Source: an uncultured virus (IMG/VR IMGVR_UViG_3300035187_003505) (lineage: Duplodnaviria > Heunggongvirae > Uroviricota > Caudoviricetes). From it: DNA of 20,000 nucleotides. The translations under genes and the position numbers were made by a program. Shown piece by piece: positions 5,332 through 19,816 of the stretch. The stretch lies in IMG/VR virus record IMGVR_UViG_3300035187_003505; one strand, written 5' to 3'. Below the pieces are notes generated by a model. It had not been told where the DNA came from and searched no databases. It was given only the letters and a program-made list of their open reading frames with translations. Within the stretch, counting starts at the first letter, position 1. Each line of letters begins with the position of its first letter.

Positions 5332-5357
5332 AGTAAACCGTTGATGTGACTTACACT

Positions 5358-5387
5358 ATTCTATCTTATCTCGCGTGCATCTGTCAA
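5358..5387 (-). promoter_or_regulatory. Sigma-70-type promoter for the M15-like gene
   Basis: Minus strand reads TTGACA-18 nt-TAGAAT, ending about 27 nt upstream of the ATG at 5331. Confidence 0.7.
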
Positions 5388-5392
5388 CAGAC

Positions 5393-5427
5393 AAAAAAAA
5401 AGCCTAGGGCTTTTACGTCCCTAGGCT
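5393..5427 (-). terminator. Rho-independent terminator (second of two after the AbrB-like gene)
   Basis: Stem AGCCTAGGG (5401-5409)/CCCTAGGCT (5419-5427) followed on the minus strand by a T8 run. Confidence 0.8.
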
Positions 5428-5437
5428 CATCACTTAG

Positions 5438-5462
5438 AAAAAAGGGCAGCTCACGACTGCCC
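5438..5462 (-). terminator. Rho-independent terminator (first after the AbrB-like gene)
   Basis: Stem GGGCAG (5444-5449)/CTGCCC (5457-5462) followed on the minus strand by T6. Confidence 0.65.
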
Positions 5463-5474
5463 GATATTACCGAA

Positions 5475-5939
5475 TTAGATTTCGGCGGCTTCCCCTCCAG
5501 CCGCCTCAGTAGCCTCAGTAGCCTCCGGCGCTTCGGCAACAGCCTTCGGCTTCTTCTCGTACACCTTGAACGGCAACGGACTGCCCTCCACCCGCTGTGC
5601 CACATCAAGGACAAGCTGCCCAGAAGCGGGATCGACAGTAATACTCAGAGTGTCGCCAGGGCCGATACCGGCCTGTTTGGAGTAGATCGCACCAATCAGC
5701 ACCGAGCCATTTTTATGGACAGTTGTCTCATTGGCAGCAGCACGACCTCGGGTCTCAGAATCGAACTTCACACCTTTGGCTTCAAGCACAGCGTCGGTGA
5801 ACCGACCAAGATCAGCGACAATATCGCCTTTACGGGTCTTGCGTTCGTAACCGGCCATGCGAGCCAGCACCGAGCGGTTCTTGATGTCAGGGTTGTCCTT
5901 GACCAGGGCCAGGAGGTCACGGCCAGTAAGAAGAGTCAC
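5475..5939 (-). CDS. Cyanobacterial-type AbrB-like transcriptional regulator
   Basis: LTGRDLLALVK...LARMAGY...FTDAVLEAKGV...RGR....TTVHKNGSVLIGAIYSKQAGIGPGD matches the picocyanobacterial/cyanophage AbrB-like family. Ala/Glu-rich tail. Confidence 0.85.
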   Translation of the reverse strand: MTLLTGRDLLALVKDNPDIKNRSVLARMAGYERKTRKGDIVADLGRFTDAVLEAKGVKFDSETRGRAAANETTVHKNGSVLIGAIYSKQAGIGPGDTLSITVDPASGQLVLDVAQRVEGSPLPFKVYEKKPKAVAEAPEATEATEAAGGEAAEI

Positions 5940-5965
5940 AGAGTTGAATTGGTTCAGACCTTAGT

Positions 5966-5994
5966 ATTGTACGCCCTGGTGGGCCTTAACACAA
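5966..5994 (-). promoter_or_regulatory. Sigma-70-type promoter for the AbrB-like gene
   Basis: Minus strand reads ggggTTGTGT-17 nt-TACAAT, about 27 nt upstream of the GTG start. Confidence 0.6.
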
Positions 5995-6013
5995 CCCCTG
6001 GAAGACGCAAAAC

Positions 6014-6226
6014 TCAACTTGCTGTCAGCAGATCCTGGATGAACTGGTCACCAGCGACCGCAACCCCGTCAGCAGCGAAGAGCGTAATGTGCTGCAGCCG
6101 GCGCCTCAAGCTCTGTTTAGTGACCTCCAGCGCGATACCCGCCTCCACCCAGGAGCTTTCTGACTGAGCTTCCCCGAGGGCGCAAGCTATTTCACGACGT
6201 AGCTGAGAGTTTTGGCTGGAGGCCAC
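6014..6226 (-). CDS. Hypothetical protein (70 aa)
   Basis: Fills the gap between the polymerase and AbrB-like genes on the same strand. A candidate promoter lies directly upstream. Confidence 0.5.
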   Translation of the reverse strand: MASSQNSQLRREIACALGEAQSESSWVEAGIALEVTKQSLRRRLQHITLFAADGVAVAGDQFIQDLLTAS

Positions 6227-10177: not shown

Positions 10178-12937
10178 CTAAGGCTCCGAACCAGTCACCT
10201 GACCACCAAACGCATCCAACCAATCAGATAGGCCCTCGCGGGGGTGGGCCGAAGGAGGTGGTTGCAAAGTCCCTGACAGGGGCAAATCGCCCTCGGGGGC
10301 AGGGTTTGATTTTGCAACCACCTCCTCTATTTCGCCTTCTGCAGCCCCTCCGGTTGCAAAATCAGGGCTTCCTTCCAGGTCACCCTCTTCGGCCTCGGGG
10401 GGAAGCTCTGATTTTGCAACCACACCCCCCTTTAACCCCCTTGGTTGCAAAATAGTTGCAAATTTCAAAAACCCCTCACACCAAGTGTTTTGGTCATCTA
10501 CATCGAATTTCGCACCCCCCTCTTTCGATCTCTCCCCGCGAGGCACTCTGAAGAGGAGAGTGGGCCTCCCTCTCCCCTCCACCGCGACCATCCCAACCTT
10601 CTCCACCATCCCAGCCTTCTCCCAGGCCGCCAGGTGCTTCCCGATGGCCTGGCGGGACGGGAACACCTCCTGGCCGGCCCCCTCCATCCGGTGGAGCACA
10701 AATTCCCGGATGGCCTTGGGAGTGGCCCCCTCTTCCCCCGAGTCCGTCACAGCGGCCAGCACAAGGCTCCTGGGGCTGATGTCTCCGCTCCGCATCACCC
10801 CCTCCCGCTCAAGTAGGGGAGTGAGATCCTCAATGCTGTAATTAAGTTCTACATCTCTTTTTATCAGCATTCGATCCCCACTACGATCAAAGCGAGACTT
10901 ACCGATACATAAGAATCTGGAGTTAACACCAAAAGTAACTTCTTGTTCAACAGATAAATTCTGTAACTCCCATGTCTCATCGACCGCATTGTTAATACGG
11001 TCTGTTCCTCTAAACTTCGTCCCATCTTTGGTGTTATGGTGAATCCATAACAGAGAACAAGCGGGGAACCCAAACTCAGAACTCATATCACCGTTATTAA
11101 CAGACAAGGCGTACAAAGGAGCTGCGTACTCAGCTTCATTCTCTTTAACCCCCGTTTCATCTTGCGATGAAGCGAGAGAGTCAATGACAACAATGACCGG
11201 CTCTACCTTTCTGATAATATCCGCTAATTCACGCGGAAGGTCAGTTTTCCAGTTTTCTACAAAGTGGAACCAGTCTGAATTAGCCTCTGTAATGTCTTGG
11301 GCGCTTAGCTGAGCATCTAGCCGAGACTTATTCTGGTCACTAGAGATCCACAAAACATTACCCTGCCGACACTGTACGTCGATCCCTCTAATCTTAATAC
11401 ACGCTCCAGTACCAATAGCTTTGGCTAGAGCTATAGCAGTTTCAGTCTTCCCAACACCGCCCCGAGCATGTAGAAGTATCTGTGACGGGCGCCGGATCAA
11501 ACCCGGTATAATGTGTTCTTCTGGCGCAACGTCCTTTCTCCAGTCTTTATCCCGTAACAAACCTATCTCTGCATTCTTAGTAAATTGCTTATGCCGAGTA
11601 ACCAACTCCTTTAATTTTGTAGGAGTTAAGCGCATACGCCCTGTGTTCTCCGCTAAATCGGTTAAAGCAATAAACTGCTCTGAAGGATCCCTAACCTCTT
11701 TAATGATTTTCTCAGCCCTAACCAATAGTTCTATCCCTGATATAACTTCTCTAGGTACATCAGTAGTCTTCTGCACTACCAGCAAATCTTCTGGGTATCT
11801 GTATCCAAGTGCCTCTGCAATAGGTTTTATGTATCGCTCCAATTCAGAACCAACAGGACGCGGTGCGTACATATCATTAGTCTCTATCTTATGGATAAAG
11901 TCCAAAGGATCTCCATATACCTTACAGCTCTTACAATCCCAACAGCCGTTCTCTTCATTAACTTGAAACGACGTGCCACTACTGCTGTCGTGCCAAGGAC
12001 AACCATTCATCAACTGCGGTTTACTACCTCCTCTTGTCTCCCAACCATACTGGTCAAATACTGAATGTCTAAACACTAATTCAGTCAACCTAGGCTGTAA
12101 CTTTTTCTGAACTTCCTCCTTAAAGAACCAACCTCTTAATTGCCTCGGAGGTACTTGAGTGCGACCTACTTCCGATTGCAGTTCACGAATATCGTCTTCA
12201 GCTAACCATTCACTAGGCTTAACCCGCCCTTTCAGTATTTCTAACACCCATGTAGGAGCATCCTCTGGCACACCATTATTGTATTGCAGAAACCTAAATC
12301 GCCTCTTAGTATCGGGATGAGGGCTACCGGGCAACACTGACATGCACTTATTGAATCTCAGCACCAACTCTTCTTTAGGAGCACGATTCATAGTGTCGTC
12401 TTCATTAGGACGACCTTTACCGCTCCACCACACGCCATCATCCAGTAGGATCAATGATATAACATGATTCAGTTGGGAAATCATTGCCTCTGGCACTCTC
12501 CACAGCAACTGCCTACGGCCTGGTTTACCTGATGTCCACGCCATAGTGGTTTCACCCCCGAATGGCTGGTACTCCTCCCCCGAGACCGCTTTGTACCTAG
12601 CATCCGCTTCGTGCCCATCAATATCTAAAGCAATCAATCCGCCGGATAGCGCACCAGTTACTACACCAATACCTCGGTATCGAGAGTCCGACACCAATGC
12701 GGACAACATGTCCTTATGTTCTATTTTCTTACTAGCCCAACCTCTATGGAACGTATCTTTCCCCGCAACTGGGATCAACGCCCAATCATCAGGAAATACT
12801 TTTTTATCAAACATCTCACGGGCAGTACCTTTAGGTGTGCCAGATACAGCTTTCGGCGCTGAAGCACCGATTGGATCAACCGTCATGGTGTAAAATCGTG
12901 AGTGGGCTAGTTCCCAGTGGTCATCATCAAGGCTCAC
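10178..12937 (-). CDS. Multidomain primase-helicase: Prim-Pol (AEP) + Zn finger + AAA_25/RepA-like helicase + winged helix + low-complexity tail
   Basis: GIGVVTG..SGGLIALDIDG and SVLPGSPHPDT (Prim-Pol); CPWH...CWDCKSC (Zn); HARGGVGKT Walker A, VVIDS Walker B, IHHNTK; C-terminal wHTH-like SRQAIGKHLAAWEKAGMV...GRGRP. Alternative start ATG at 12886. Confidence 0.9.
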   Translation of the reverse strand: MSLDDDHWELAHSRFYTMTVDPIGASAPKAVSGTPKGTAREMFDKKVFPDDWALIPVAGKDTFHRGWASKKIEHKDMLSALVSDSRYRGIGVVTGALSGGLIALDIDGHEADARYKAVSGEEYQPFGGETTMAWTSGKPGRRQLLWRVPEAMISQLNHVISLILLDDGVWWSGKGRPNEDDTMNRAPKEELVLRFNKCMSVLPGSPHPDTKRRFRFLQYNNGVPEDAPTWVLEILKGRVKPSEWLAEDDIRELQSEVGRTQVPPRQLRGWFFKEEVQKKLQPRLTELVFRHSVFDQYGWETRGGSKPQLMNGCPWHDSSSGTSFQVNEENGCWDCKSCKVYGDPLDFIHKIETNDMYAPRPVGSELERYIKPIAEALGYRYPEDLLVVQKTTDVPREVISGIELLVRAEKIIKEVRDPSEQFIALTDLAENTGRMRLTPTKLKELVTRHKQFTKNAEIGLLRDKDWRKDVAPEEHIIPGLIRRPSQILLHARGGVGKTETAIALAKAIGTGACIKIRGIDVQCRQGNVLWISSDQNKSRLDAQLSAQDITEANSDWFHFVENWKTDLPRELADIIRKVEPVIVVIDSLASSQDETGVKENEAEYAAPLYALSVNNGDMSSEFGFPACSLLWIHHNTKDGTKFRGTDRINNAVDETWELQNLSVEQEVTFGVNSRFLCIGKSRFDRSGDRMLIKRDVELNYSIEDLTPLLEREGVMRSGDISPRSLVLAAVTDSGEEGATPKAIREFVLHRMEGAGQEVFPSRQAIGKHLAAWEKAGMVEKVGMVAVEGRGRPTLLFRVPRGERSKEGGAKFDVDDQNTWCEGFLKFATILQPRGLKGGVVAKSELPPEAEEGDLEGSPDFATGGAAEGEIEEVVAKSNPAPEGDLPLSGTLQPPPSAHPREGLSDWLDAFGGQVTGSEP
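10260..10516. repeat. Iteron-like GGTTGCAAAATC repeats in alternating orientation (candidate replication origin)
   Basis: Copies at 10260 (+), 10308-10319 (-), 10352 (+), 10408-10421 (-), 10443 (+), 10454 (+, degenerate) and 10505-10516 (-, degenerate). Confidence 0.75.
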
Positions 12938-13068
12938 TCCGGGAAGGGTGGGCCTTTTTACTGGCGCTGGGCCGCCGCCCCCAGTTTACGGCATACCTGC
13001 CTGACCTAGGCATTTTGTGGACATCCGCCTCCCACGTCCCGGCCTCCACCCCTGCGATAGGTTGACCT

Positions 13069-13302
13069 ATGTCCCTCCATGCCTTACCATTGAGCGAATC
13101 GACAGAGCCTGCAGGCGGACCCGCCAAAACCAACTACCGGCGATACGGCGTCCCCAAAAGGAAACGCCATCTGTATCTGACGGACGCGGCGCATGGTCAC
13201 CTAGCATCCCTGGCTAGTCTCCGTAATTCCTCCCCCTCGGAGGTGGCGGAGCAGATCATCCGGGCCCACCAGCAGGCTGTCTCGATCCCCACCGCCCCTT
13301 AA
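13069..13302 (+). CDS. Small RHH/CopG-like DNA-binding protein
   Basis: KRKRHLYLTDAAHGHLASLA....SPSEVAEQIIR fits an RHH pattern. First gene of the divergent rightward operon. Confidence 0.6.
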   Translation: MSLHALPLSESTEPAGGPAKTNYRRYGVPKRKRHLYLTDAAHGHLASLASLRNSSPSEVAEQIIRAHQQAVSIPTAP

Positions 13303-13349
13303 GGGGCAATTCCCGTTACCAGCTCCTTTCCCTCTTTCCTTTCAATACC

Positions 13350-14066
13350 ATGCCCGCTACCAAAGCCGCTGCTACGACTAAAGCCAAGCGCCCAACTTCT
13401 GCCTTTCTCACGGATGAACAGATCGAAGAAGTAGCTAAAGATACTCAAGGGAACGATAGTTTTGTCGGCTTGTCCAAGTTAGATGAAGGTAAACCTCATC
13501 GTTTTCGTTATCTCGGTCCAGCAGTTACTGGCTATAGTACCTGGCTCGATGTTGACGGTAAATCACGCCCTATTCGTTGGGCACGGAAACCAGTGGGTGA
13601 GGACATCCCAAGTAATATTCAGATTAACAAGGATTCTGGCAGACCTACGGAGATCAAAAGATTTATAGCTGGTTTCGTCTGGGATTACTTTAAGGAGCGT
13701 ATCCGCGTACTAAACATTGACCAGTCTACTATCCTCAGCCAGCTTCATGCTTTCATCGCTGATGAGGAAGACTACGGAGATCCGCAAGGATACGACATTA
13801 AGATCACACGGAAGGTGGAGAAAGGCTTCACCAAATACTCTCTAACCGCTTCGCCGCCCAAGGATGTATCCGCAGAAATTGACGCGGCATTTAAAGCCCT
13901 TATGAAAGGTGGTGCAGATCTAACCGTTCTATTTGAGAACGGCGACCCCTTTAACCCCGAAGCGTCTAAAGAAGAGGACGCGGGCGATGAAAAGGAGACC
14001 GCAGAAGAAGAAGAAGAAGAAGAAGAAGAAGAAGAAGAAGAAGAAGAAGAAGAAGAAGATCTCTGA
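13350..14066 (+). CDS. Single-stranded DNA-binding protein (phage OB-fold type) with acidic tail
   Basis: FRYLGPAVTGY..W...RPIRW...FIAGFVWDY..ERIRVLNIDQSTI...DYGDPQGYDIKITR...TKYSL resembles a phage SSB-like family. Extremely acidic C-terminus. Confidence 0.7.
   Translation: MPATKAAATTKAKRPTSAFLTDEQIEEVAKDTQGNDSFVGLSKLDEGKPHRFRYLGPAVTGYSTWLDVDGKSRPIRWARKPVGEDIPSNIQINKDSGRPTEIKRFIAGFVWDYFKERIRVLNIDQSTILSQLHAFIADEEDYGDPQGYDIKITRKVEKGFTKYSLTASPPKDVSAEIDAAFKALMKGGADLTVLFENGDPFNPEASKEEDAGDEKETAEEEEEEEEEEEEEEEEEEDL
14004..14057 (+). repeat. (GAA)18 perfect trinucleotide repeat encoding poly-Glu
   Basis: 18 uninterrupted GAA codons read directly from the sequence. Confidence 0.95.
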
Positions 14067-14095
14067 TTCCAACGATTACTCTCGCAATAACGACC

Positions 14096-14121
14096 GGGGC
14101 AGGCCCTTCCTGCCCCTTTTT
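14096..14121 (+). terminator. Rho-independent terminator after the SSB-like gene
   Basis: GGGGCAGG-ccctt-CCTGCCCC followed by TTTTT. Confidence 0.8.
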
Positions 14122-14153
14122 CATGTAAGCTATCTTCGACGACGCCGTTTCAG

Positions 14154-14399
14154 ATGGATCACCCGACCGCCGATCAGATCCTCCGAGTTTTCGGGCGAAA
14201 CGTTGAATTTCTGGCCGCCCGTAAGGGCATCACCCTCAAAGCCCTTGCAGCAGATCTTCAAATAACAGGCGGTGCGTTATCTCGCGCTCGTAAGGCTACT
14301 AGGTTCATCGACGTGGAGTTGCTCCTAGGTTGTGCTCGTGTTTTAGATTCTACCGCTGACGAGCTGCTACATCGTATAGAGGGGGTTACATACTTATGA
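14154..14399 (+). CDS. XRE/Cro-family HTH transcriptional regulator
   Basis: FGRNVEFLAARKGITLKALAADLQITGGALSR...LLGCARVLDSTADELL is a typical HTH_XRE pattern. Confidence 0.85.
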   Translation: MDHPTADQILRVFGRNVEFLAARKGITLKALAADLQITGGALSRARKATRFIDVELLLGCARVLDSTADELLHRIEGVTYL

Positions 14400-15085
14400 G
14401 CTTCCTAACACTCCCTAAACACACACTGGAACGCGAGGATAACCATCCACTAGGGGGACGCCACTATAATACAGAGCTTGGGTGGGCCGGAAGTGTTACA
14501 AATAAAATAGGACAGTCTAAAGACATGACTGGTATCAATGAATGGAGGGAATGGAAAGGTAAAGAAAAAGCTGATGGGATTCTAAAAGTAGCCGGATTTA
14601 GGGGAACAGGCACACACAATAACGTAGAGCAGTTTCTATTAACAGGCGGGGAACCTAAGTTCTGCATGCTACGGACTCCGTACTGGAACAGCATTAAAGA
14701 GTTCTTAGTCAAGATTGAGCATACTGCTCTAATGGAAGGCGCAGTCTGGCACCCTGATGGGTTTGCTGGATCTTTAGATCATCTAGGTTACATAATAGAA
14801 GATCGAGGAGAGATAAGCTTAAGTGACTGGAAGTCAGCCGAGAAATACATTGATGAAAGCAAAGTAGCAGGGCAGCAGAAACTCTACGATTACAAACTAC
14901 AAGTAGCCGCGTACAAAGCTGCAGCGGAGTATGTTTATAGGGATTACGGACTATACATCCCCCGAGCCCGCATCGTCCTAGCCATCCCCGACGCTGCTCC
15001 CCAGGTCTTTAAGCTAGAGGCGGACGAGCTTAAACAACTCTTTATTCACTTCCAAGCCCGCAACCGTTACGCAAACTCAAAGTAA
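14396..15085 (+). CDS. PD-(D/E)XK exonuclease (phage exonuclease family)
   Basis: SVT....SK....INEWR, RGTGTH, E......GFAGSLD, DWKS and YKLQVAAY motifs. Confidence 0.85.
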   Translation: MSFLTLPKHTLEREDNHPLGGRHYNTELGWAGSVTNKIGQSKDMTGINEWREWKGKEKADGILKVAGFRGTGTHNNVEQFLLTGGEPKFCMLRTPYWNSIKEFLVKIEHTALMEGAVWHPDGFAGSLDHLGYIIEDRGEISLSDWKSAEKYIDESKVAGQQKLYDYKLQVAAYKAAAEYVYRDYGLYIPRARIVLAIPDAAPQVFKLEADELKQLFIHFQARNRYANSK

Positions 15086-15705
15086 TGACAATGCCTACTC
15101 TTTCCCCTGTGAACACCGAATACAGGAAGCCTAAGTTGCTGATCATCGGTCACGCTCGTCATGGCAAAGACACCCTTGCTGAGAAAATAAGAGACAAAAT
15201 GGGCCTCGCGTTTATGTCCTCTTCAGTTTTTGTCGGACAGGAATGTATTTGGCATCAATGGGGCCGAAGACGTGTTTGGCATAAATGGTTCCGAAGACGC
15301 TACTCTAATTTTGATGACATGTTTGCGGATAGAGTTAATAATCGCGAAACATGGGCAAACTTGATCTCTGCCTATAATACTCCCGACAAAACACGAACGG
15401 CAAAAACTATGCTTGATCGTGGTTTTGATATGTATGTAGGTATGCGACGGTTAGACGAATTGGTGGCCTGTAGGAACGCTAGGTTATTTGATCATGTTAT
15501 CTGGGTTGATGCTATTAAGCGCCTGCCACCAGAAAGTAAAAGCTCCATGGAGCTAACTCCAAGTTGCGCAGATCTTAAATGCGACAATAACGGGCCAGAG
15601 GCGGACATGGACATATGGGTAAATAACCTACAAAGGTTTTTGCACAACTGCCGCTACGATGTTAAACTCACAGACTCTTCTGCAGTTCTAAAATATGACC
15701 GTTAG
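15085..15705 (+). CDS. P-loop kinase, deoxynucleoside monophosphate kinase-like
   Basis: LLIIGHARHGKDT P-loop; YVGMR..DE; VIWVDA..RLPPE..SSM; DNNG motifs. Confidence 0.8.
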   Translation: MTMPTLSPVNTEYRKPKLLIIGHARHGKDTLAEKIRDKMGLAFMSSSVFVGQECIWHQWGRRRVWHKWFRRRYSNFDDMFADRVNNRETWANLISAYNTPDKTRTAKTMLDRGFDMYVGMRRLDELVACRNARLFDHVIWVDAIKRLPPESKSSMELTPSCADLKCDNNGPEADMDIWVNNLQRFLHNCRYDVKLTDSSAVLKYDR

Positions 15706-15994
15706 TATCTGGCAACCAGACCCTGCCGGCTTCTTACGGGGACATCGTGTCCGATTTGCCGGCGGGCCGGTGATGACGGTCATGGATTACGAGAAAAATG
15801 GATATGAAGATGGAAGCTCGGCTATTACCTGCGGATGGTGGGTAGCTGAAGAGCTTAGAGTCGCAGATTTCCATCCTGGTGTTTTAATACACGCGCAGAT
15901 TGACACAATATGCTCAGAACCTGAGGATACCTCTGGGGAAGTGGTCGTATATCATGAGTTCTATTCTGAACCCGATCAACTAGAGCAACCATAA
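15695..15994 (+). CDS. YodC/DUF2158-like small protein
   Basis: G.RVRFAGGPVMTV....ITCGWW......DFHPGVL matches the YodC (GGP.MTV...C.W) pattern. Confidence 0.65.
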   Translation: MTVSIWQPDPAGFLRGHRVRFAGGPVMTVMDYEKNGYEDGSSAITCGWWVAEELRVADFHPGVLIHAQIDTICSEPEDTSGEVVVYHEFYSEPDQLEQP

Positions 15995-16890
15995 TGGCTA
16001 GTAACTCTGAACTTCAAGGCTATATGCAAGATGTGGGTAGACACATAGTCTTAAGTGAAGAAGCTCAAATACGCCATTGCCGTAATATCGCACTATGGCA
16101 GGCGGCTAAAGCCGATAACAGTGATTTACCAGAATCATATATATCAAAAATAAAGCGGCGCGGGCAGCATTCTATGAAGATAATGGTCGAATCGAACTTG
16201 CGCATGGTGATCACCATTGCAAAAATATATCGGGGCCGAGGATTGGAATTTCCAGATCTTATACAAGAAGGCAACATGGGCTTAATAAGAGGGTTAGAAA
16301 AATACGACCCATCTAGAGGTTACAGACTATCGACTTACTGCTATAACTGGATTAAACAATCTATCACGCGAGCACTCCACAATCAAGGGCGTGCCGTGCG
16401 CGTACCGCTAAACTACCACGAAATACTGTGTAAAGTGCAGCGCGAAAGCATGCGAGTAGAAGCAACTACTGGAGTAAAACCTTCTATTGAATACTTAGCA
16501 CTGTTCGCAAAGGTAACAGTAGAGAGACTTAAACTAATCATGGAGGATTACTCAATCACCACAGTTAGAAGCCTCTCTTGCCCAGCAGTAGAAGGTGGCA
16601 GCGAACTCATCGAGTTACTGGTGGCGGACACTCCCCCCGAGGACGACCCCTCTCCCTCCCCTTTCCCCCAGCTAGCCCTCCCCTCCAGCGAGCATCGCCA
16701 GGTCATGGCCGCGCTGCGAAGCTTACCTTCCAGAGAACACTATGTGATAGAACAGGTGGTGATCCATGGTAAGTCTTTGCAGGAAGTTGCAGATGATATA
16801 TACTTAAGTAAGTCTAGGATCGCACAGTTACTCAAGTCGGGAAAGTCTAAACTGCTCGCTAAGATGAATGAATTATCGGAGAAAGAGTAA
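15994..16890 (+). CDS. Phage-encoded RNA polymerase sigma-70 factor (RpoD/group 2-like)
   Basis: Region 1.2 YMQDVGRH.VLSEE; region 2 NLRMVITIAK.Y..RGLEFPDLIQEGNMGLIRGLEKYDPSRGYRLSTY..WIKQSITRAL; region 4 HTH SLQEVADDIYLSKSRIAQL. Confidence 0.95.
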   Translation: MASNSELQGYMQDVGRHIVLSEEAQIRHCRNIALWQAAKADNSDLPESYISKIKRRGQHSMKIMVESNLRMVITIAKIYRGRGLEFPDLIQEGNMGLIRGLEKYDPSRGYRLSTYCYNWIKQSITRALHNQGRAVRVPLNYHEILCKVQRESMRVEATTGVKPSIEYLALFAKVTVERLKLIMEDYSITTVRSLSCPAVEGGSELIELLVADTPPEDDPSPSPFPQLALPSSEHRQVMAALRSLPSREHYVIEQVVIHGKSLQEVADDIYLSKSRIAQLLKSGKSKLLAKMNELSEKE

Positions 16891-16992
16891 CTTCTTACAC
16901 AATACATATATATATACATTTTTATATAGCATGTATGTGTGATATAGCATACATGTCAATCTCACTCTTAGACTCAGTGAGACTCCAAGGGG

Positions 16993-17021
16993 TTGACACT
17001 GGGGCCGATTGGTGCTAGACT
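16993..17021 (+). promoter_or_regulatory. Early promoter P1 (sigma-70 type)
   Basis: TTGACA-17 nt-TAGACT with extended TGn. Confidence 0.75.
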
Positions 17022-17092
17022 GACGATGGTTCCCGCGCACGCGCGCGTTTCATCTTACTGCGCCGATGTTGCGGGACCTTAGGCGGGACCGC

Positions 17093-17122
17093 TTGACAAC
17101 CTGCCGACCTAGGGGTTATGTT
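17093..17122 (+). promoter_or_regulatory. Early promoter P2 (sigma-70 type)
   Basis: TTGACA-18 nt-TATGTT. Confidence 0.65.
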
Positions 17123-17206
17123 GGATCCAAGCAAGGAGAACCGGCACCCGTCGCGGTCCGTTCTTTCTTTCTTGCTAGTGATCCCCTTGGGGGTCGCGCC
17201 GGGGGG

Positions 17207-17235
17207 TTGACAGACCGCCCAAAACCGACTAAGTT
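17207..17235 (+). promoter_or_regulatory. Early promoter P3 (sigma-70 type), directly upstream of the large structured RNA
   Basis: TTGACA-17 nt-TAAGTT. Predicted start site near 17241-17243. Confidence 0.7.
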
Positions 17236-17240
17236 AATTC

Positions 17241-17745
17241 CACAACCGCCAGAGACCCTATGTAATTCCCCTTCCATAACGCAGACAGTGAAGCGTGTCT
17301 CGCCTGTGAATACAGGAGTTATAGCTGTGAGCTACGGACCTTTGATGGGCTGTAGTGGCGCACATTCAAATCCCGGCGGCTAGGTATCGACCTAAGCAAG
17401 CGCGGCGAACGGGCCAATAATCCCTACCGACTTTCATGTCGGCTAACAGGGGTGAGGTTTCAAGTAGCACCGGAGTACCGGAGGGGGCAGTAGTGTGCGT
17501 TAGATGGGGAGGCCGGTGAGAGCCAGATCCCATCGTGAGCAAGCAGGATCCTCGTGCAGAGAGATCGGGCTCACAGTGCAAGCAGGTTATGCGGTATGTT
17601 ACCGGGGGTTGTCAGGCCCTACACATACTTCTCAGGGGGGTTGGGCCTCCTGCTGCTTAGATAAGGGGTGCTCTTACAGGGCCCCAATCCCGCAAGGGTT
17701 CCCTACCGTCAGGGTTATGCGACGGCTGTAAGCAGGTCTCTTTTA
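17241..17745 (+). ncRNA. Candidate large (~490-500 nt) highly structured non-coding RNA
   Basis: Closing stem AGAGACC (17251-57)/GGTCTCT (17735-41) encloses more than 12 nested helices, e.g. GCGCACATT/AGTGTGCGT, GATGGG/CCCATC, GTGAGC/GCTCAC, AGCAGG/CCTGCT, AGGCCC/GGGCCT, CTTACAG/CTGTAAG and CCC-GCAA-GGG. No convincing ORF; promoter immediately upstream. Confidence 0.65.
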
Positions 17746-17781
17746 TGTAGTCCTGGGCCAATTAACATAAAACAACTTTTC

Positions 17782-17880
17782 TACAACATACCTAGTGCAA
17801 GCTAGGCAAGGCGCGATTCGCCCATCCTGTTCTCGCAGGATGGGCCTTTCGTATGGGGGTTCAAATCCCCCTATGTTGTA
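17782..17880 (+). ncRNA. tRNA-like element (T-arm plus acceptor-like stem, no canonical anticodon arm)
   Basis: TACAACATA/TATGTTGTA 9-bp stem; GGGGG-TTCAAAT-CCCCC T-arm directly adjoining the 3' strand; GCAA-capped hairpin; 10-bp GCCCATCCTG/CAGGATGGGC arm. Confidence 0.65.
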
Positions 17881-17912
17881 TCGCTCCTACGGGAGCACCA
17901 TCTTAGGATACC

Positions 17913-18059
17913 ATGTTGTTCTTTCGTCCAGCACCAAAGATCCGCGTTTTCCCTCTTCCAGACGCTACCACTGCGCCTGGCCGCCGTGCGGCTAAATTAG
18001 CCGCTAAACAGCAGCGTAAGCTGAAAGCTGCTGGTACTTTCGTCCGTATTGAAAAATGA
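17913..18059 (+). CDS. Small basic hypothetical protein (48 aa; not in ORF track)
   Basis: MLFFRPAPKIRVFPLPDATTAPGRRAAKLAAKQQRKLKAAGTFVRIEK; AGGA upstream; ATGA overlap with the next ORF. Confidence 0.6.
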   Translation: MLFFRPAPKIRVFPLPDATTAPGRRAAKLAAKQQRKLKAAGTFVRIEK

Positions 18060-18229
18060 GTAAAGTTTATTTAATCCTTAAAACTAAGGTAATACTTGAC
18101 CTTAGTTGCTCACTGGATGTTCTTAAGGAGGTTGTAGAAGATATGGATTACAGTATTACACCTGATGTTGAGTATGCCACTCTTGTAGATAGTGAAATAC
18201 TAGATTTTGAAGTCACAGATATTAAGTAA
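18056..18229 (+). CDS. Small acidic hypothetical protein (57 aa; not in ORF track)
   Basis: MSKVYLILKTKVILDLSCSLDVLKEVVEDMDYSITPDVEYATLVDSEILDFEVTDIK; coupled to the upstream ORF by ATGA. Confidence 0.65.
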   Translation: MSKVYLILKTKVILDLSCSLDVLKEVVEDMDYSITPDVEYATLVDSEILDFEVTDIK

Positions 18230-18272
18230 TCGTTAGGCTTTCTACTCCAATCCCTATTTCCACAACCACCCC

Positions 18273-18500
18273 ATGGCCTTTACTCAGGAACAAATTTTAA
18301 CTGCTGTCGAGAATGCTGTAACCGGGCAATTTACGTCAGACTGGAATGTTGAAGGGGGATGGTCACATGAGAGTAGTACCGTAGTTCTCTCACAACCTCG
18401 CGACTATTTGTTCTTTACTACTGACGGATGGCGCACCGATAAAGAGAGAATAAAGGTGATAAAGAATATGCGAGGCATGGCAATTGTTTGCTTGATTTAA
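18273..18500 (+). CDS. Hypothetical early protein (75 aa)
   Basis: ATG preceded by a C/A-rich leader (TTCCACAACCACCC); same strand as its neighbours. Confidence 0.65.
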   Translation: MAFTQEQILTAVENAVTGQFTSDWNVEGGWSHESSTVVLSQPRDYLFFTTDGWRTDKERIKVIKNMRGMAIVCLI

Positions 18501-18507
18501 TCACATC

Positions 18508-18568
18508 ATCCCCTCCTCAAGAGTTTCCCCTAAGCGCACTGCGTCTAGGGGTACTTTTGATGAGGGAT
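18508..18568 (+). other. Long imperfect intergenic hairpin (candidate RNase III processing site)
   Basis: About 25 bp of interrupted stem, ATCCCCTCCTCAAGAGTTTCCCCTAAGCGC-act-GCGTCTAGGGGTACTTTTGATGAGGGAT; no U-tract directly after the stem. Confidence 0.55.
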
Positions 18569-18613
18569 TGTCCCTCTTTCCTCTACCCCGGCTCTTTAGC
18601 CGTCTGACTTCCT

Positions 18614-18925
18614 ATGTCAGTTACAACCGTTATCCATCCGGCTAAGGCCGCGATGGATCTTTGGCGTACAACTACGCTGCGCCCAATTCTTGATGTTGTT
18701 CTAACCGAGCGACGCCGGGACACTAACGGTAATACTGTTTTCATAGCTCGCACGGGGCTCGCTATTTATCGAGAACAGCGCGACTACACTCTCACTGAGT
18801 GTGAGAACCATGTAGCAGTGGCTCTAGAGGCCCTGAAGGAGTACTCCGTTAAAACTATGCACAAGTTGGCGGATATACGAATAACTGATGGCCATGGTGT
18901 CATTGTCTTTGAGAGGCTACCATGA
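18614..18925 (+). CDS. Hypothetical early protein (103 aa)
   Basis: ORF in a chain of ATGA-coupled small genes. Confidence 0.65.
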   Translation: MSVTTVIHPAKAAMDLWRTTTLRPILDVVLTERRRDTNGNTVFIARTGLAIYREQRDYTLTECENHVAVALEALKEYSVKTMHKLADIRITDGHGVIVFERLP

Positions 18926-19128
18926 TCGCAGAACACGCGACAGCAGAAGACTTCGCCAAATGGCGGCGCCATGCAGAAACTCTCGATCTTGGTGCTTTGC
19001 GCCATGTTGTCAGAGATTGCCGTCAGGCAGAATCTGCCATGCGTGGCTGGAACCCCACCAGAGAGGGGTACTATGCCGATCAGGCGTTCACTTATGGCGA
19101 TGAATATCGCCGGAGGCTTTCAAGATGA
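18922..19128 (+). CDS. Hypothetical early protein (68 aa)
   Basis: ATGA coupling on both sides. The DCRQA..AM..WNP.REGYY.DQ..TY.DE.RRR motif resembles small cyanophage proteins as recalled. Confidence 0.7.
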   Translation: MIAEHATAEDFAKWRRHAETLDLGALRHVVRDCRQAESAMRGWNPTREGYYADQAFTYGDEYRRRLSR

Positions 19129-19406
19129 CTAAGCCTACTAAACCTGTCACACTTCACTTCACATCTGACCCCAGCCATGGCTGGCTCCATGTCAATCGTG
19201 ACGTGGCAAAGATGATCATGGGCGATGACTACAGCCGCATATCGCAATGCTCTTATCAGCGAGGGGCGACTATCTATCTAGAAGAGGATAGTGATGCAAA
19301 GCTGTTTAAAAAAGCTTGTGAGGCAAGAGGTGTAGACCTTGATATAAAAGTCACATACTACGAACGTACTGCCCCAATCTGTTCCTACGCCACTTTCTAC
19401 CCATGA
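19125..19406 (+). CDS. Conserved phage hypothetical protein (DPxHGWLxV...YLEEDxDA family)
   Basis: FTSDPSHGWLHV...ISQCSYQRG..IYLEEDSDAKLF is a motif set seen in many phage early proteins. ATGA coupled. Confidence 0.75.
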   Translation: MTKPTKPVTLHFTSDPSHGWLHVNRDVAKMIMGDDYSRISQCSYQRGATIYLEEDSDAKLFKKACEARGVDLDIKVTYYERTAPICSYATFYP

Positions 19407-19816
19407 CGGCCATTCTCCAAGTAGTACCGACCCCCCACCTTTGGGAGGTCCATCATCCCTACTACTGCGAACTATCTAATTACTACGCCACCGGCAGGGA
19501 CAAAGGTTATCGAGAGTATGGCAGCTTTGCCGACTTCCTAACCGAAGAAGGCGATGCTGACATGGATTACAACCTTGTATTCCGATGGGATTGGAAAGAA
19601 GGCGATCCAGACGATAATGACGGTGAAATGCCCTTGCCCTACACAGGTGACGACAACTACCGCAACGGCAAGCTCTACCTTTTCATTATGCAGCAACGTA
19701 AAGGGCTGTACGAATGGATTGAAGTCGAAGTCTGTAGGGCCGATGAACCTGCTGTTCTTGCTTACCTTGCTCCTAGGTGGGACCACATGAAAAAACTATG
19801 GAGTCCTGTTCTATGA
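19403..19816 (+). CDS. Conserved phage hypothetical protein (HPYYC...DxDYNLVFRWDW family)
   Basis: 137 aa with HLWEVHHPYYC and DMDYNLVFRWDW motifs. ATGA coupled. Confidence 0.75.
   Translation: MTAILQVVPTPHLWEVHHPYYCELSNYYATGRDKGYREYGSFADFLTEEGDADMDYNLVFRWDWKEGDPDDNDGEMPLPYTGDDNYRNGKLYLFIMQQRKGLYEWIEVEVCRADEPAVLAYLAPRWDHMKKLWSPVL

Follow-up and report, generated by a model that had tools for sequence, protein, structure and literature searches.

We analyzed 20,000 nt of DNA (the window) from an uncultured tailed phage of lake water, IMG/VR record IMGVR_UViG_3300035187_003505, and focused on a putative large structured RNA near its right end. The window contains tail genes as well as genes for a family A DNA polymerase, a Dda-like helicase, a primase, an exonuclease, and a sigma-70 family factor. 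The polymerase is only ~28% identical to that of the nearest cultured relatives. The sigma factor gene (15994–16890, + strand) belongs to phrog_351 (E = 1.9e-50), and its homologues contain PF04542 and PF04545. Directly downstream of it lies about 1 kb without convincing genes (16891–17912), which is followed by a run of small open reading frames (ORFs) with a good codon signal. The first of these (17913–18059, + strand) would encode 48 amino acids; it has AGGA 7 nt upstream and an in-frame codon score of +0.344, and it does not match any family.

An initial annotation, made from the letters alone, had proposed that 17241–17745 encodes a non-coding RNA of ~500 nt with multiple domains, and that this RNA is either a divergent member of the GOLLD/ROOL class or a new large class. 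Those ends did not hold up: the conserved unit is a core at 17315–17732 plus a 3' element at 17782–17896.

The gap opens with an AT-rich tract (16892–16960; GC content 0.40) that contains a 15-nt direct repeat (ATATAGCATGTATGT and ATATAGCATACATGT) and lies between the sigma factor gene and a series of sigma-70-like promoters, all on the + strand. P1 (TTGACA-17-TAGACT, 16993–17021) matches the consensus at 10 of 12 positions, has an extended TG, and is invariant in the close relatives L005 and L006. P2 (TTGACA-18-TATGTT, 17093–17122) also matches at 10 of 12 positions, with a predicted start at ~17129. P3 (17207–17235), with TTGACA at 17207–17212, a 17-nt spacer, and TAAGTT at 17230–17235, is the promoter that the initial annotation had picked out; its predicted start is at ~17242. 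The sequence is indeed there and is conserved in L005, L006, and another close relative, G001, but our consensus scan, which listed P1 and P2, missed P3 because its -10 element matches at just 3 of 6 positions. The scan gave no further promoter between 17235 and 17913. After P3 comes a variable 5' leader (17242–17314, + strand), which is replaced by other sequence in the more distant relative L324. The leader holds the arms of non-conserved outer helices, along with a small AGACA/TGTCT hairpin in which there is one compensatory change.

Non-coding character and secondary structure

To score codon usage, we used log-odds trained on 16 long genes of the window. The seven small early ORFs downstream of the RNA, which were outside the training set, are all positive in frame (+0.14 to +0.34). 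Across 17301–17776, all six frames are negative (-0.135 to -0.324 per codon) and contain 4–11 stops. The ORFs that overlap the RNA, at 17066–17383, 17504–17731, and (on the - strand) 17366–17581, have codon scores of 0.050, -0.177, and -0.009, and none of them belongs to a PHROG or Pfam family. Furthermore, the substitutions between the core and its homologue in L324 track base pairs, not codons, and the alignment contains a frame-breaking indel of 1–2 nt (column 292). The initial annotation was right that this region is non-coding, and the overlapping ORFs lack the conserved coding signal that would have counted against it.

None of 4227 Rfam models, which presumably include GOLLD and ROOL, matches anywhere in the window at its gathering score. 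With a threshold of E ≤ 10, there are six weak matches in 16700–18200, none of them within 17241–17745. ARAGORN found no tRNA or tmRNA in the window or in three relatives. Group I and group II introns have no Rfam match at either threshold; also, no gene is interrupted, both flanks are non-coding, and ARAGORN reported no split tRNA. These scans agree with the initial annotation, which had not recognized RNase P, tmRNA, or group I or II intron cores. As for its classification, a new large phage RNA family fits, but the GOLLD/ROOL half of the proposal is not supported, as neither model matches even at E ≤ 10. With blastn, 16900–17950 has no match among 50,697 GenBank phage records.

The conserved structured core (17315–17732, + strand) of what we call the type B cassette is 93% identical between the window and L324 (388 of 417 aligned bases are the same, and 30 of the core's 418 columns differ). 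L324, which is the same as L326, comes from a 71.7-kb phage with a rating of complete, whose sigma factor shares 55% identity with the window's and whose flanking DNA shares ~66%. A motif for the type B core, CTTTCATG-N2-GG-N8-GGTGAGG-N5-AGTAG, is present in nine IMG/VR contigs, L324 among them, and has no matches in genome_contigs.

Fourteen of the 30 differences lie in helices of our revised secondary structure, and 13 of these 14 keep a standard pair. Ten of the 13 make up five double compensatory changes (17381/17394, 17596/17626, 17599/17623, 17674/17731, and 17679/17726), and the other three are wobble-type. One pair, 17385/17390, is broken in L324. Between the window and L324, the helices of the initial annotation give 120 pairs, with 99.2% paired and 7 changed on both sides, which was reached by 3 of 500 shuffles. 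The revised model gives 124 pairs, with 99.6% paired and 9 changed on both sides, which was reached by 1 of 500 shuffles. In slid controls, with partners moved by 1–3 columns, 0–1 pairs were changed on both sides under either model.

The initial annotation had described its helices as a mutually compatible set. All 19 helix arms are found where it placed them, as are the GGTCTCT-TTTT tail and the two copies of GGTTATGCG (17585 and 17713; the first copy has a 1-nt deletion in L324). The inner helices gain support from the comparison to homologues, but the outer helices and several individual ones fail. Specifically, TAGGT/ACCTA, CTTACAG/CTGTAAG, CCGAC/GTCGG, and TCCCT/AGGGG are supported by homologues, and GCGCACATT/AGTGTGCGT and GATGGG/CCCATC show wobble changes only. 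The closing helix AGAGACC/GGTCTCT has 2 of its 7 pairs broken in both L005 and L006, ATAAC/GTTAT has 1 of its 5 pairs broken in the same two relatives, and the 5' arm of CCCCTT/AAGGGG is missing from the different left flank of L324. GTGAGC (17535)/GCTCAC is broken in L324; our revision replaces it with a long-range helix, GCTGTGAGCT (17324)/GGGCTCACAGT (17568), and drops GCTACG/TGTAGT, a local hairpin with a 5' arm overlapping the new helix. CGGTA/TACCG loses out to GGTATGT (17593)/ACATACT (17623), a helix with two double compensatory changes, and in our revision this helix and two local hairpins take the place of CGGTA/TACCG and AGGCCC/GGGCCT. AGCAGG/CCTGCT moves by one register to AAGCAG/CTGCTT. 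The arms of the proposed pseudoknots, GGGTTAT/ATAATCC and GGCCCC/GGGGTT, are without informative variation, and GGGGT/GCCCC has just one wobble-type change.

Covariation across more distant sequences comes from a central domain of three helices (17404–17468, + strand). It runs CGAA, H3, a loop of 5–6 nt, H2, a bulge, H1 (with the loop UUUCAU), H2', UGA, H3', and AGUAG. These 65 nt align without gaps to six other sequences. In this alignment of seven sequences (A7), 93.9% of cells are paired, compared to 78.2 ± 2.7% in shuffles (reached by 0 of 500), and 6 of 14 pairs are changed on both sides. The covariation score of A7 is 0.463, versus 0.181 for shuffles and 0.282 for the best slid control. 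The domain covaries across five sequence subgroups. We ran a covariance model of the domain (R1) over 75 sources. It recovered all of the seed members and also found groups that were not in the seed: L292 at 37.3 bits (E = 7e-8) and L096 at 18.9 bits (E = 0.023).

Many of the pairs are G-U, such as GGG/UUU in H3 (17411–17413/17458–17460), and they become A-C mismatches on the - strand. Because G-U pairs are impossible on that strand, the + strand is the one that folds. The initial annotation had argued the same from its own G-U pairs, and the conserved helices bear it out.

We also considered ATGAAAG, the complement of the conserved loop, as a target sequence. There are 6 sites versus 3.3 expected, a number that 23 of 200 shuffles reach, and none of the sites is at an early start codon, so we rejected this candidate.

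Directly 3' of the core is a tRNA-like multi-hairpin element (17782–17880, + strand), which, along with the terminator-like stem inside it, had been overlooked in the initial annotation. Its acceptor-like helix, TACAACATA/TATGTTGTA, is 9 bp long and surrounds a 5-bp hairpin, a long hairpin, and a T-arm look-alike, GGGGG-TTCAAAT-CCCCC. Of the hallmarks of tRNAs, an acceptor helix on a T arm with a TΨC-type loop is present. ARAGORN does not identify this element as a tRNA (0 genes), and the best Rfam match of the G001 copy is to tRNA-Sec, at 15.4 bits versus a gathering score of 47 (E = 5.7). Both the acceptor (17785/17877) and, in L238, the T stem show compensatory changes; across five sequences, 6 of 40 pairs are changed on both sides. 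In this 3' region, the comparison of the window to L324 adds changes at 17785/17877, 17825/17840, 17828/17837, and 17885/17894. In L324, an insertion of 23 nt interrupts the T stem.

The long hairpin (17820–17845) is terminator-like: with its tail (17820–17852, + strand), it consists of GCCCATCCTG-TTCTCG-CAGGATGGGC followed by CTTTCGT; our scan gave 11 pairs, of which 7 are GC. Its stem covaries in L324 (17825/17840 and 17828/17837) and is wholly different in L238, which keeps the T-rich tail (TTTC). A GC-rich stem that is free to vary, next to a T-rich run that is kept, suggests an intrinsic terminator. GC-rich relatives carry a strong terminator, CCCCCTGG...CCGGGGG-TCTTTT. Last before the first ORF is a small hairpin, GCTCC-TACG-GGAGC (17883–17896, + strand), with a compensatory change at 17885/17894 and, in L324, a T run after it.

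Some short sequences recur within the gap. A T-loop-like decamer, TTCAAATCCC, occurs both in the core (17365–17374) and in the tRNA-like element (17860–17869), and L324 keeps both copies, the second as TTCAATTCCC. GGGGGTTGTCAGGCC (17604–17618, inside the core) matches the -35 region of P3, GGGGGTTGACAGACC (17202–17216), at 87% identity and may be a promoter remnant or an internal start. CCCTATGT flanks the RNA, with one copy in the 5' leader (17256–17263) and another in the 3' strand of the acceptor-like helix (17870–17877). The leaders of G001, L324, and L095 also contain CCTATGT, and that of L325 does not. The pair of CCCTATGT copies could be due to chance, or it could be a processing or recombination signal.

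Exchangeable cassettes and RNA libraries

Close relatives of the phage in IMG/VR, with sigma factors that are 97–99% identical to the window's, are L005, L006, and G001 (which is the same as L007). Within the window, L005, and L006, the 477 nt at 17299–17775 do not differ at all, and the flanks of this run differ by 3–7%. It is the longest three-way identical run in 11973–17914 (the next is 223 nt). We consider these 477 nt to be the swap unit: in G001, whose sigma factor is 97% identical, 17296–17780 of the window is replaced by 584 unrelated nt that do not align, between flanks that are 93–96% identical. The boundaries of the swaps are sharp, at 17295/17781 in G001 and at 17314/17733 in L324. 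The type of RNA is decoupled from the phage backbone in both directions, with an unrelated RNA at 97% sigma identity (G001) and a 93% identical RNA at 55% sigma identity (L324), and this decoupling shows that the module has been exchanged. The slot is filled by exchangeable cassettes with unrelated alternatives, which the initial annotation did not notice.

We call the cassette of G001 type A. It matches eight loci, with 61–67% identity over 245–530 nt, where the sigma factors are just 35–43% identical. A profile search adds about eight members. A scan for the motif GCCCTRACCGACCYGG gave at least 119 matches, most of them by chance, and filtering these with the profile left about a dozen true members of type A. 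The members are L007:5300–5885 (G001), L094–L101, L106, L107, L112, L230, L237, L238, L250, L258, and L269. Type A is another RNA family that is not yet catalogued, ~550–600 nt long and in the same slot, and it is better sampled than type B. Its invariant blocks are GAGGGACAAG, CCCTRACCGACC, a GCAACCC-hairpin, and CTAATAATGCGA, and its conserved blocks carry frame-breaking indels of 1–2 nt. RNAalifold on nine type A sequences (one of which was mis-cut) gave 53 pairs, 25 of them changed on both sides. In G001, a 160-amino-acid ORF that starts with TTG lies over the cassette and has a codon score of 0.002. R1 does not match the type A cassettes; its only match in a type A locus has E = 0.24 and is on the wrong strand. 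A relationship between types A and B is therefore not established.

More broadly, when we scanned IMG/VR with aligned phage sigma factors, we obtained 80 loci, at 29–52% sigma identity except for L005 and L007. Many of these loci share a common layout: tandem TTGAC(A/G) promoters come first, then a GC-rich stretch of 500–600 nt without genes, a conserved 3' element with the strong terminator given above, and small ORFs. When metagenomes were scanned with the sigma alignment, we found only cellular sigma factors (L013–L092, 29–39% identity) and no relative of this locus. The 30 loci that share the 3' anchor sort into nine cassette groups, none of which aligns with another, and nine is a minimum for the wider clade. 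We found no Rfam match in 20 loci that represent all of the cassette groups. Each of the relatives that we examined has some cassette, and none has an empty slot.

The other groups at the slot (~600 nt upstream of the 3' anchor) are L292, L294/L096, L302/L113, L308/L102, L291, L298, and L310. Over their length, none of them aligns to type A or to type B. The three-helix domain of type B is still present in the L292 and L096 groups, and it is absent from the rest.

Parts of 17100–18100 are found in 24 public sequencing runs, all of which are labelled as lake or freshwater. Five of these are metatranscriptomes, which contain 41–46% of the sampled words. We compared three metatranscriptome runs, from two studies, to 15500–19500. 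The unstranded contigs from these RNA libraries cover 17137–17812 (675 nt; run X14, study P14), 17254–17735 (483 nt; run X17, study P17), and 17159–17415 and 17388–17726 (259 and 341 nt; run X19, study P17). They consist of the non-coding stretch only and show L005-type variants in the left flank. The X14 and X17 contigs start 8–12 nt downstream of the predicted starts of P2 and P3, respectively, which is compatible with these promoters and is not proof of them. The right ends (17726, 17735, and 17812) differ between the studies. These RNA runs have no coverage of the flanking genes (15500–17100 and 17912–19500) and DNA run X7 covers both flanks; we did not use this as evidence. The contigs tell us that 17137–17812 is present in the RNA libraries of two studies, and nothing more.

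Possible roles and comparison to known systems

We think it probable that 17315–17732 is the core of a new family of structured non-coding RNAs, outside of Rfam, that is made early by the host polymerase and sits in an exchangeable slot. The RNA would be ~0.5–0.7 kb and heavily base-paired, in a fixed slot between the sigma factor gene and the first small early ORFs. It would be transcribed rightward from the tandem host-type (sigma-70-like) promoters, and the transcript would run into the tRNA-like multi-hairpin element with its terminator-like stem. From the type and position of the promoters, we infer that host RNA polymerase would make it at the start of infection, and it may accumulate as a discrete, stable RNA. 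Unrelated folded RNAs replace each other between conserved flanks, regardless of how related the backbones are, likely by recombination in those flanks. Of this reading, what our data show is that the RNA is non-coding, that its secondary structure is conserved with compensatory changes, which strand folds, that the module is exchanged, and that the stretch is present in RNA libraries.

Several observations weigh against this reading. The initial annotation had recommended comparing the folding energy to that of shuffled sequences, and this test failed on both strands: for the + strand, the minimum free energy is -188.9 kcal/mol versus -185.3 ± 6.5 for shuffles (z = -0.55, with 30 of 100 shuffles at least as stable), and the - strand is also unremarkable (z = -1.09). 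Taken as a set, the five outer helices do not beat shuffles (90.5% versus 88.9% paired, which 174 of 500 shuffles reach). Given that several of the proposed helices and all of the outer closing helices fail, the full architecture is provisional. There are few independent sequences, namely one close homologue (L324, or equivalently L326) and four distant subgroups; the effective sequence number in R1 is only 2.5; and shuffle controls can be beaten without structure when sequences are related. After the R1 search, an alignment of ten distinct rows (A8) has 8 of 14 pairs changed on both sides and 17 additional pair types, which 2 of 500 shuffles reach, but these rows were fitted to the model, so the pair counts are biased. 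Zero divergence is not unique to the swap unit, as pairwise identical runs of 600–753 nt occur in coding DNA. The -10 element of P3 is poor. The RNA-library contigs are assembled and unstranded, DNA carry-over is possible, and the ends of contigs are not the ends of transcripts.

If the RNA is a discrete early product, then it might act in trans on a host factor, for counter-defence or as a decoy during takeover. We suggest this tentatively, giving it rather less than even weight within the favored reading, because of the position of the slot, the strong host-type promoters, and the allelic diversity. Polymorphism of this kind is known from phage counter-defence loci. On the other hand, no sequence feature points to a specific target.

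The main rival is that the RNA is a cis-acting leader of the early operon, which would control read-through (by put-like antitermination or by attenuation) or the processing or stability of the mRNA, without any free trans-acting RNA. We consider this unlikely, yet it has some support. The RNA sits between the only visible promoters and the early ORFs, and a terminator-like hairpin (a strong terminator in the GC-rich relatives) lies between the RNA and the ORFs, which implies that the early genes need read-through. Also, the put RNAs of HK022 occupy the same position after early promoters. The put RNAs are ~70 nt long, with two hairpins just downstream of the early promoters, and act in cis on RNA polymerase. 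They share just their position with our RNA, and differ from it in size and in polymorphism of type: 500–600 nt is far larger than known antiterminator RNAs, and unrelated types among phages that are 97% related would be unexpected if the RNA acts on the conserved host polymerase. The RNA-library contigs are also limited to this stretch, although contigs cannot show where transcripts end.

It is improbable that the cassette is a selfish or mobile RNA element, such as an ORF-less intron, a ribozyme-like insertion, or a site-specific or homing cassette, that persists by moving. Such an element could account for the sharp swap boundaries, for 477 nt that are identical in three genomes whose flanks differ by 3–7%, and for the 93% identity of the core between phages with 55% identical sigma factors. 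But Rfam's group I and II introns do not match even at E ≤ 10, no gene is interrupted, and the cassette lacks an endonuclease, an integrase, or any other ORF. Furthermore, each relative has a cassette and none is empty, which fits a required function with alternative alleles.

We think it very improbable that the locus works as DNA, that is, as a replication origin or packaging region that forms hairpins in single-stranded DNA and is activated by transcription from the promoters. The AT-rich repeat tract (16892–16960) and the nearby genes for primase, helicase, polymerase, and exonuclease would suit an origin. However, the tract is upstream of the promoters rather than downstream, the conserved helices rely on G-U pairs that exist only in + strand RNA, the stretch is found in RNA libraries, and the module swaps types while its flanks stay. 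We give even less credence to a very divergent member of GOLLD or ROOL: the traits in common are just a large ornate phage RNA, a lake habitat, and a tRNA-like neighbor, and no Rfam model matches at its gathering score in the window or, within 17241–17745, at E ≤ 10, nor do the relatives or any of the other cassette types have a match. Least credible is a small protein gene with unusual codon usage, since the ORFs that overlap the RNA (71–105 amino acids) and the 160-amino-acid ORF of G001 have codon scores at about zero or below and the overlapping ORFs match no family, while frame-breaking indels of 1–2 nt interrupt both the conserved blocks of type A and the alignment to L324, and substitutions track base pairs instead of codons.

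The favored reading, a new family of structured early RNAs in an exchangeable slot, can be compared to several known systems. In T4-type phages, PeSL (promoter-early stem-loop) cassettes have early promoters and hairpins flanking small modules that are swapped between related phages. The modules of PeSL cassettes are small protein genes, whereas here, the module is a large structured RNA with conserved families of its own. There are also tRNA-like 3' elements that define the ends of RNAs: the mascRNA of MALAT1, the stable RNAs of T4 that are made with tRNAs, and the CI RNA of P4, which is cut by RNase P. Our 3' element resembles these in having an acceptor-like helix on a T-arm look-alike directly 3' of a large RNA, and it could be a signal for RNase P or for stability. 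It differs in that it has no CCA, is not detected as a tRNA, has a split T stem in L324, and contains a terminator-like hairpin.

Like GOLLD and ROOL, the RNA is several hundred nt long, multi-domain, non-coding, phage-borne, and of unknown function, and GOLLD was first seen in lake metagenomes, often beside tRNAs (in part from PMC7567579 and PMC12286853). Unlike GOLLD and ROOL, whose models do not match, our RNA is smaller (a core of ~420 nt). Its slot after the early promoters is also fixed and can hold unrelated RNAs instead, and the RNA adjoins a tRNA-like element rather than real tRNA genes. In the lytic phage ICP1, according to passages of PMC7567579, an ORF-less space of ~1 kb yields the phage's most abundant transcript, which is ~800 nt with an unknown role. 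That transcript is encoded beside the lysis cluster instead of at the head of the early region, and polymorphism of cassettes is not described for it in those passages; we compared the two by description only.

Full-text searches of the literature turned up no description of such a slot. The supplements of PMC10690425 list over 10,000 candidate phage RNAs; in three of the six files, there are no occurrences of two core strings or of four contig numbers, and the RNA may still be listed there.

A broader proposal is that a widespread clade of freshwater phages has a dedicated early "RNA slot," in which unrelated families of large ornate RNAs (two at the least, and maybe nine or more) serve as interchangeable alleles that are exchanged horizontally between distant phages. 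This is possible but doubtful. If true, it would be an RNA-based hypervariable locus, analogous to the protein-based counter-defence islands, with new RNA classes that have host-directed functions. Large structured RNAs are rare apart from those of the ribosome, RNase P, and introns, and new biochemistry has come with each further class. Here there is a new family, supported by covariation and found in lake RNA libraries, plus the better-sampled type A at the same place. It is also a natural experiment, with near-identical phages that have different RNAs and distant phages that have the same RNA. With this pattern, what big phage RNAs are for can be tested directly, through swaps of cassettes with host range or escape from defence as the readout. 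Gene-centered annotation of phages misses this type of locus entirely.

Other features of the window

The early region downstream of the RNA is a mosaic of swapped modules. The small early ORFs at 17915–18506 are replaced by ~620 nt of other sequence in L005 and L006, and are shared with G001 only in part (up to 18064). The ORF at 19403–19816 (137 amino acids; phrog_7880, of unknown function) is cleanly missing from L005, L006, and L007; this difference is an indel of one whole small gene (19407–19812 in the window).

Elsewhere in the window, the ORF at 5346–6167 (273 amino acids) has no codon signal (-0.019 in frame; GC content of 0.62 at third codon positions), unlike every other long ORF, and it has no PHROG match. 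It is either a foreign gene or no gene at all. Finally, 13973–14222 is a hot spot of divergence among the window, L005, and L006, with 48 variable columns in 250 nt, compared to 1–26 per 250 nt elsewhere. It spans the end of the ORF at 13350–14066 and the start of a small regulator ORF.

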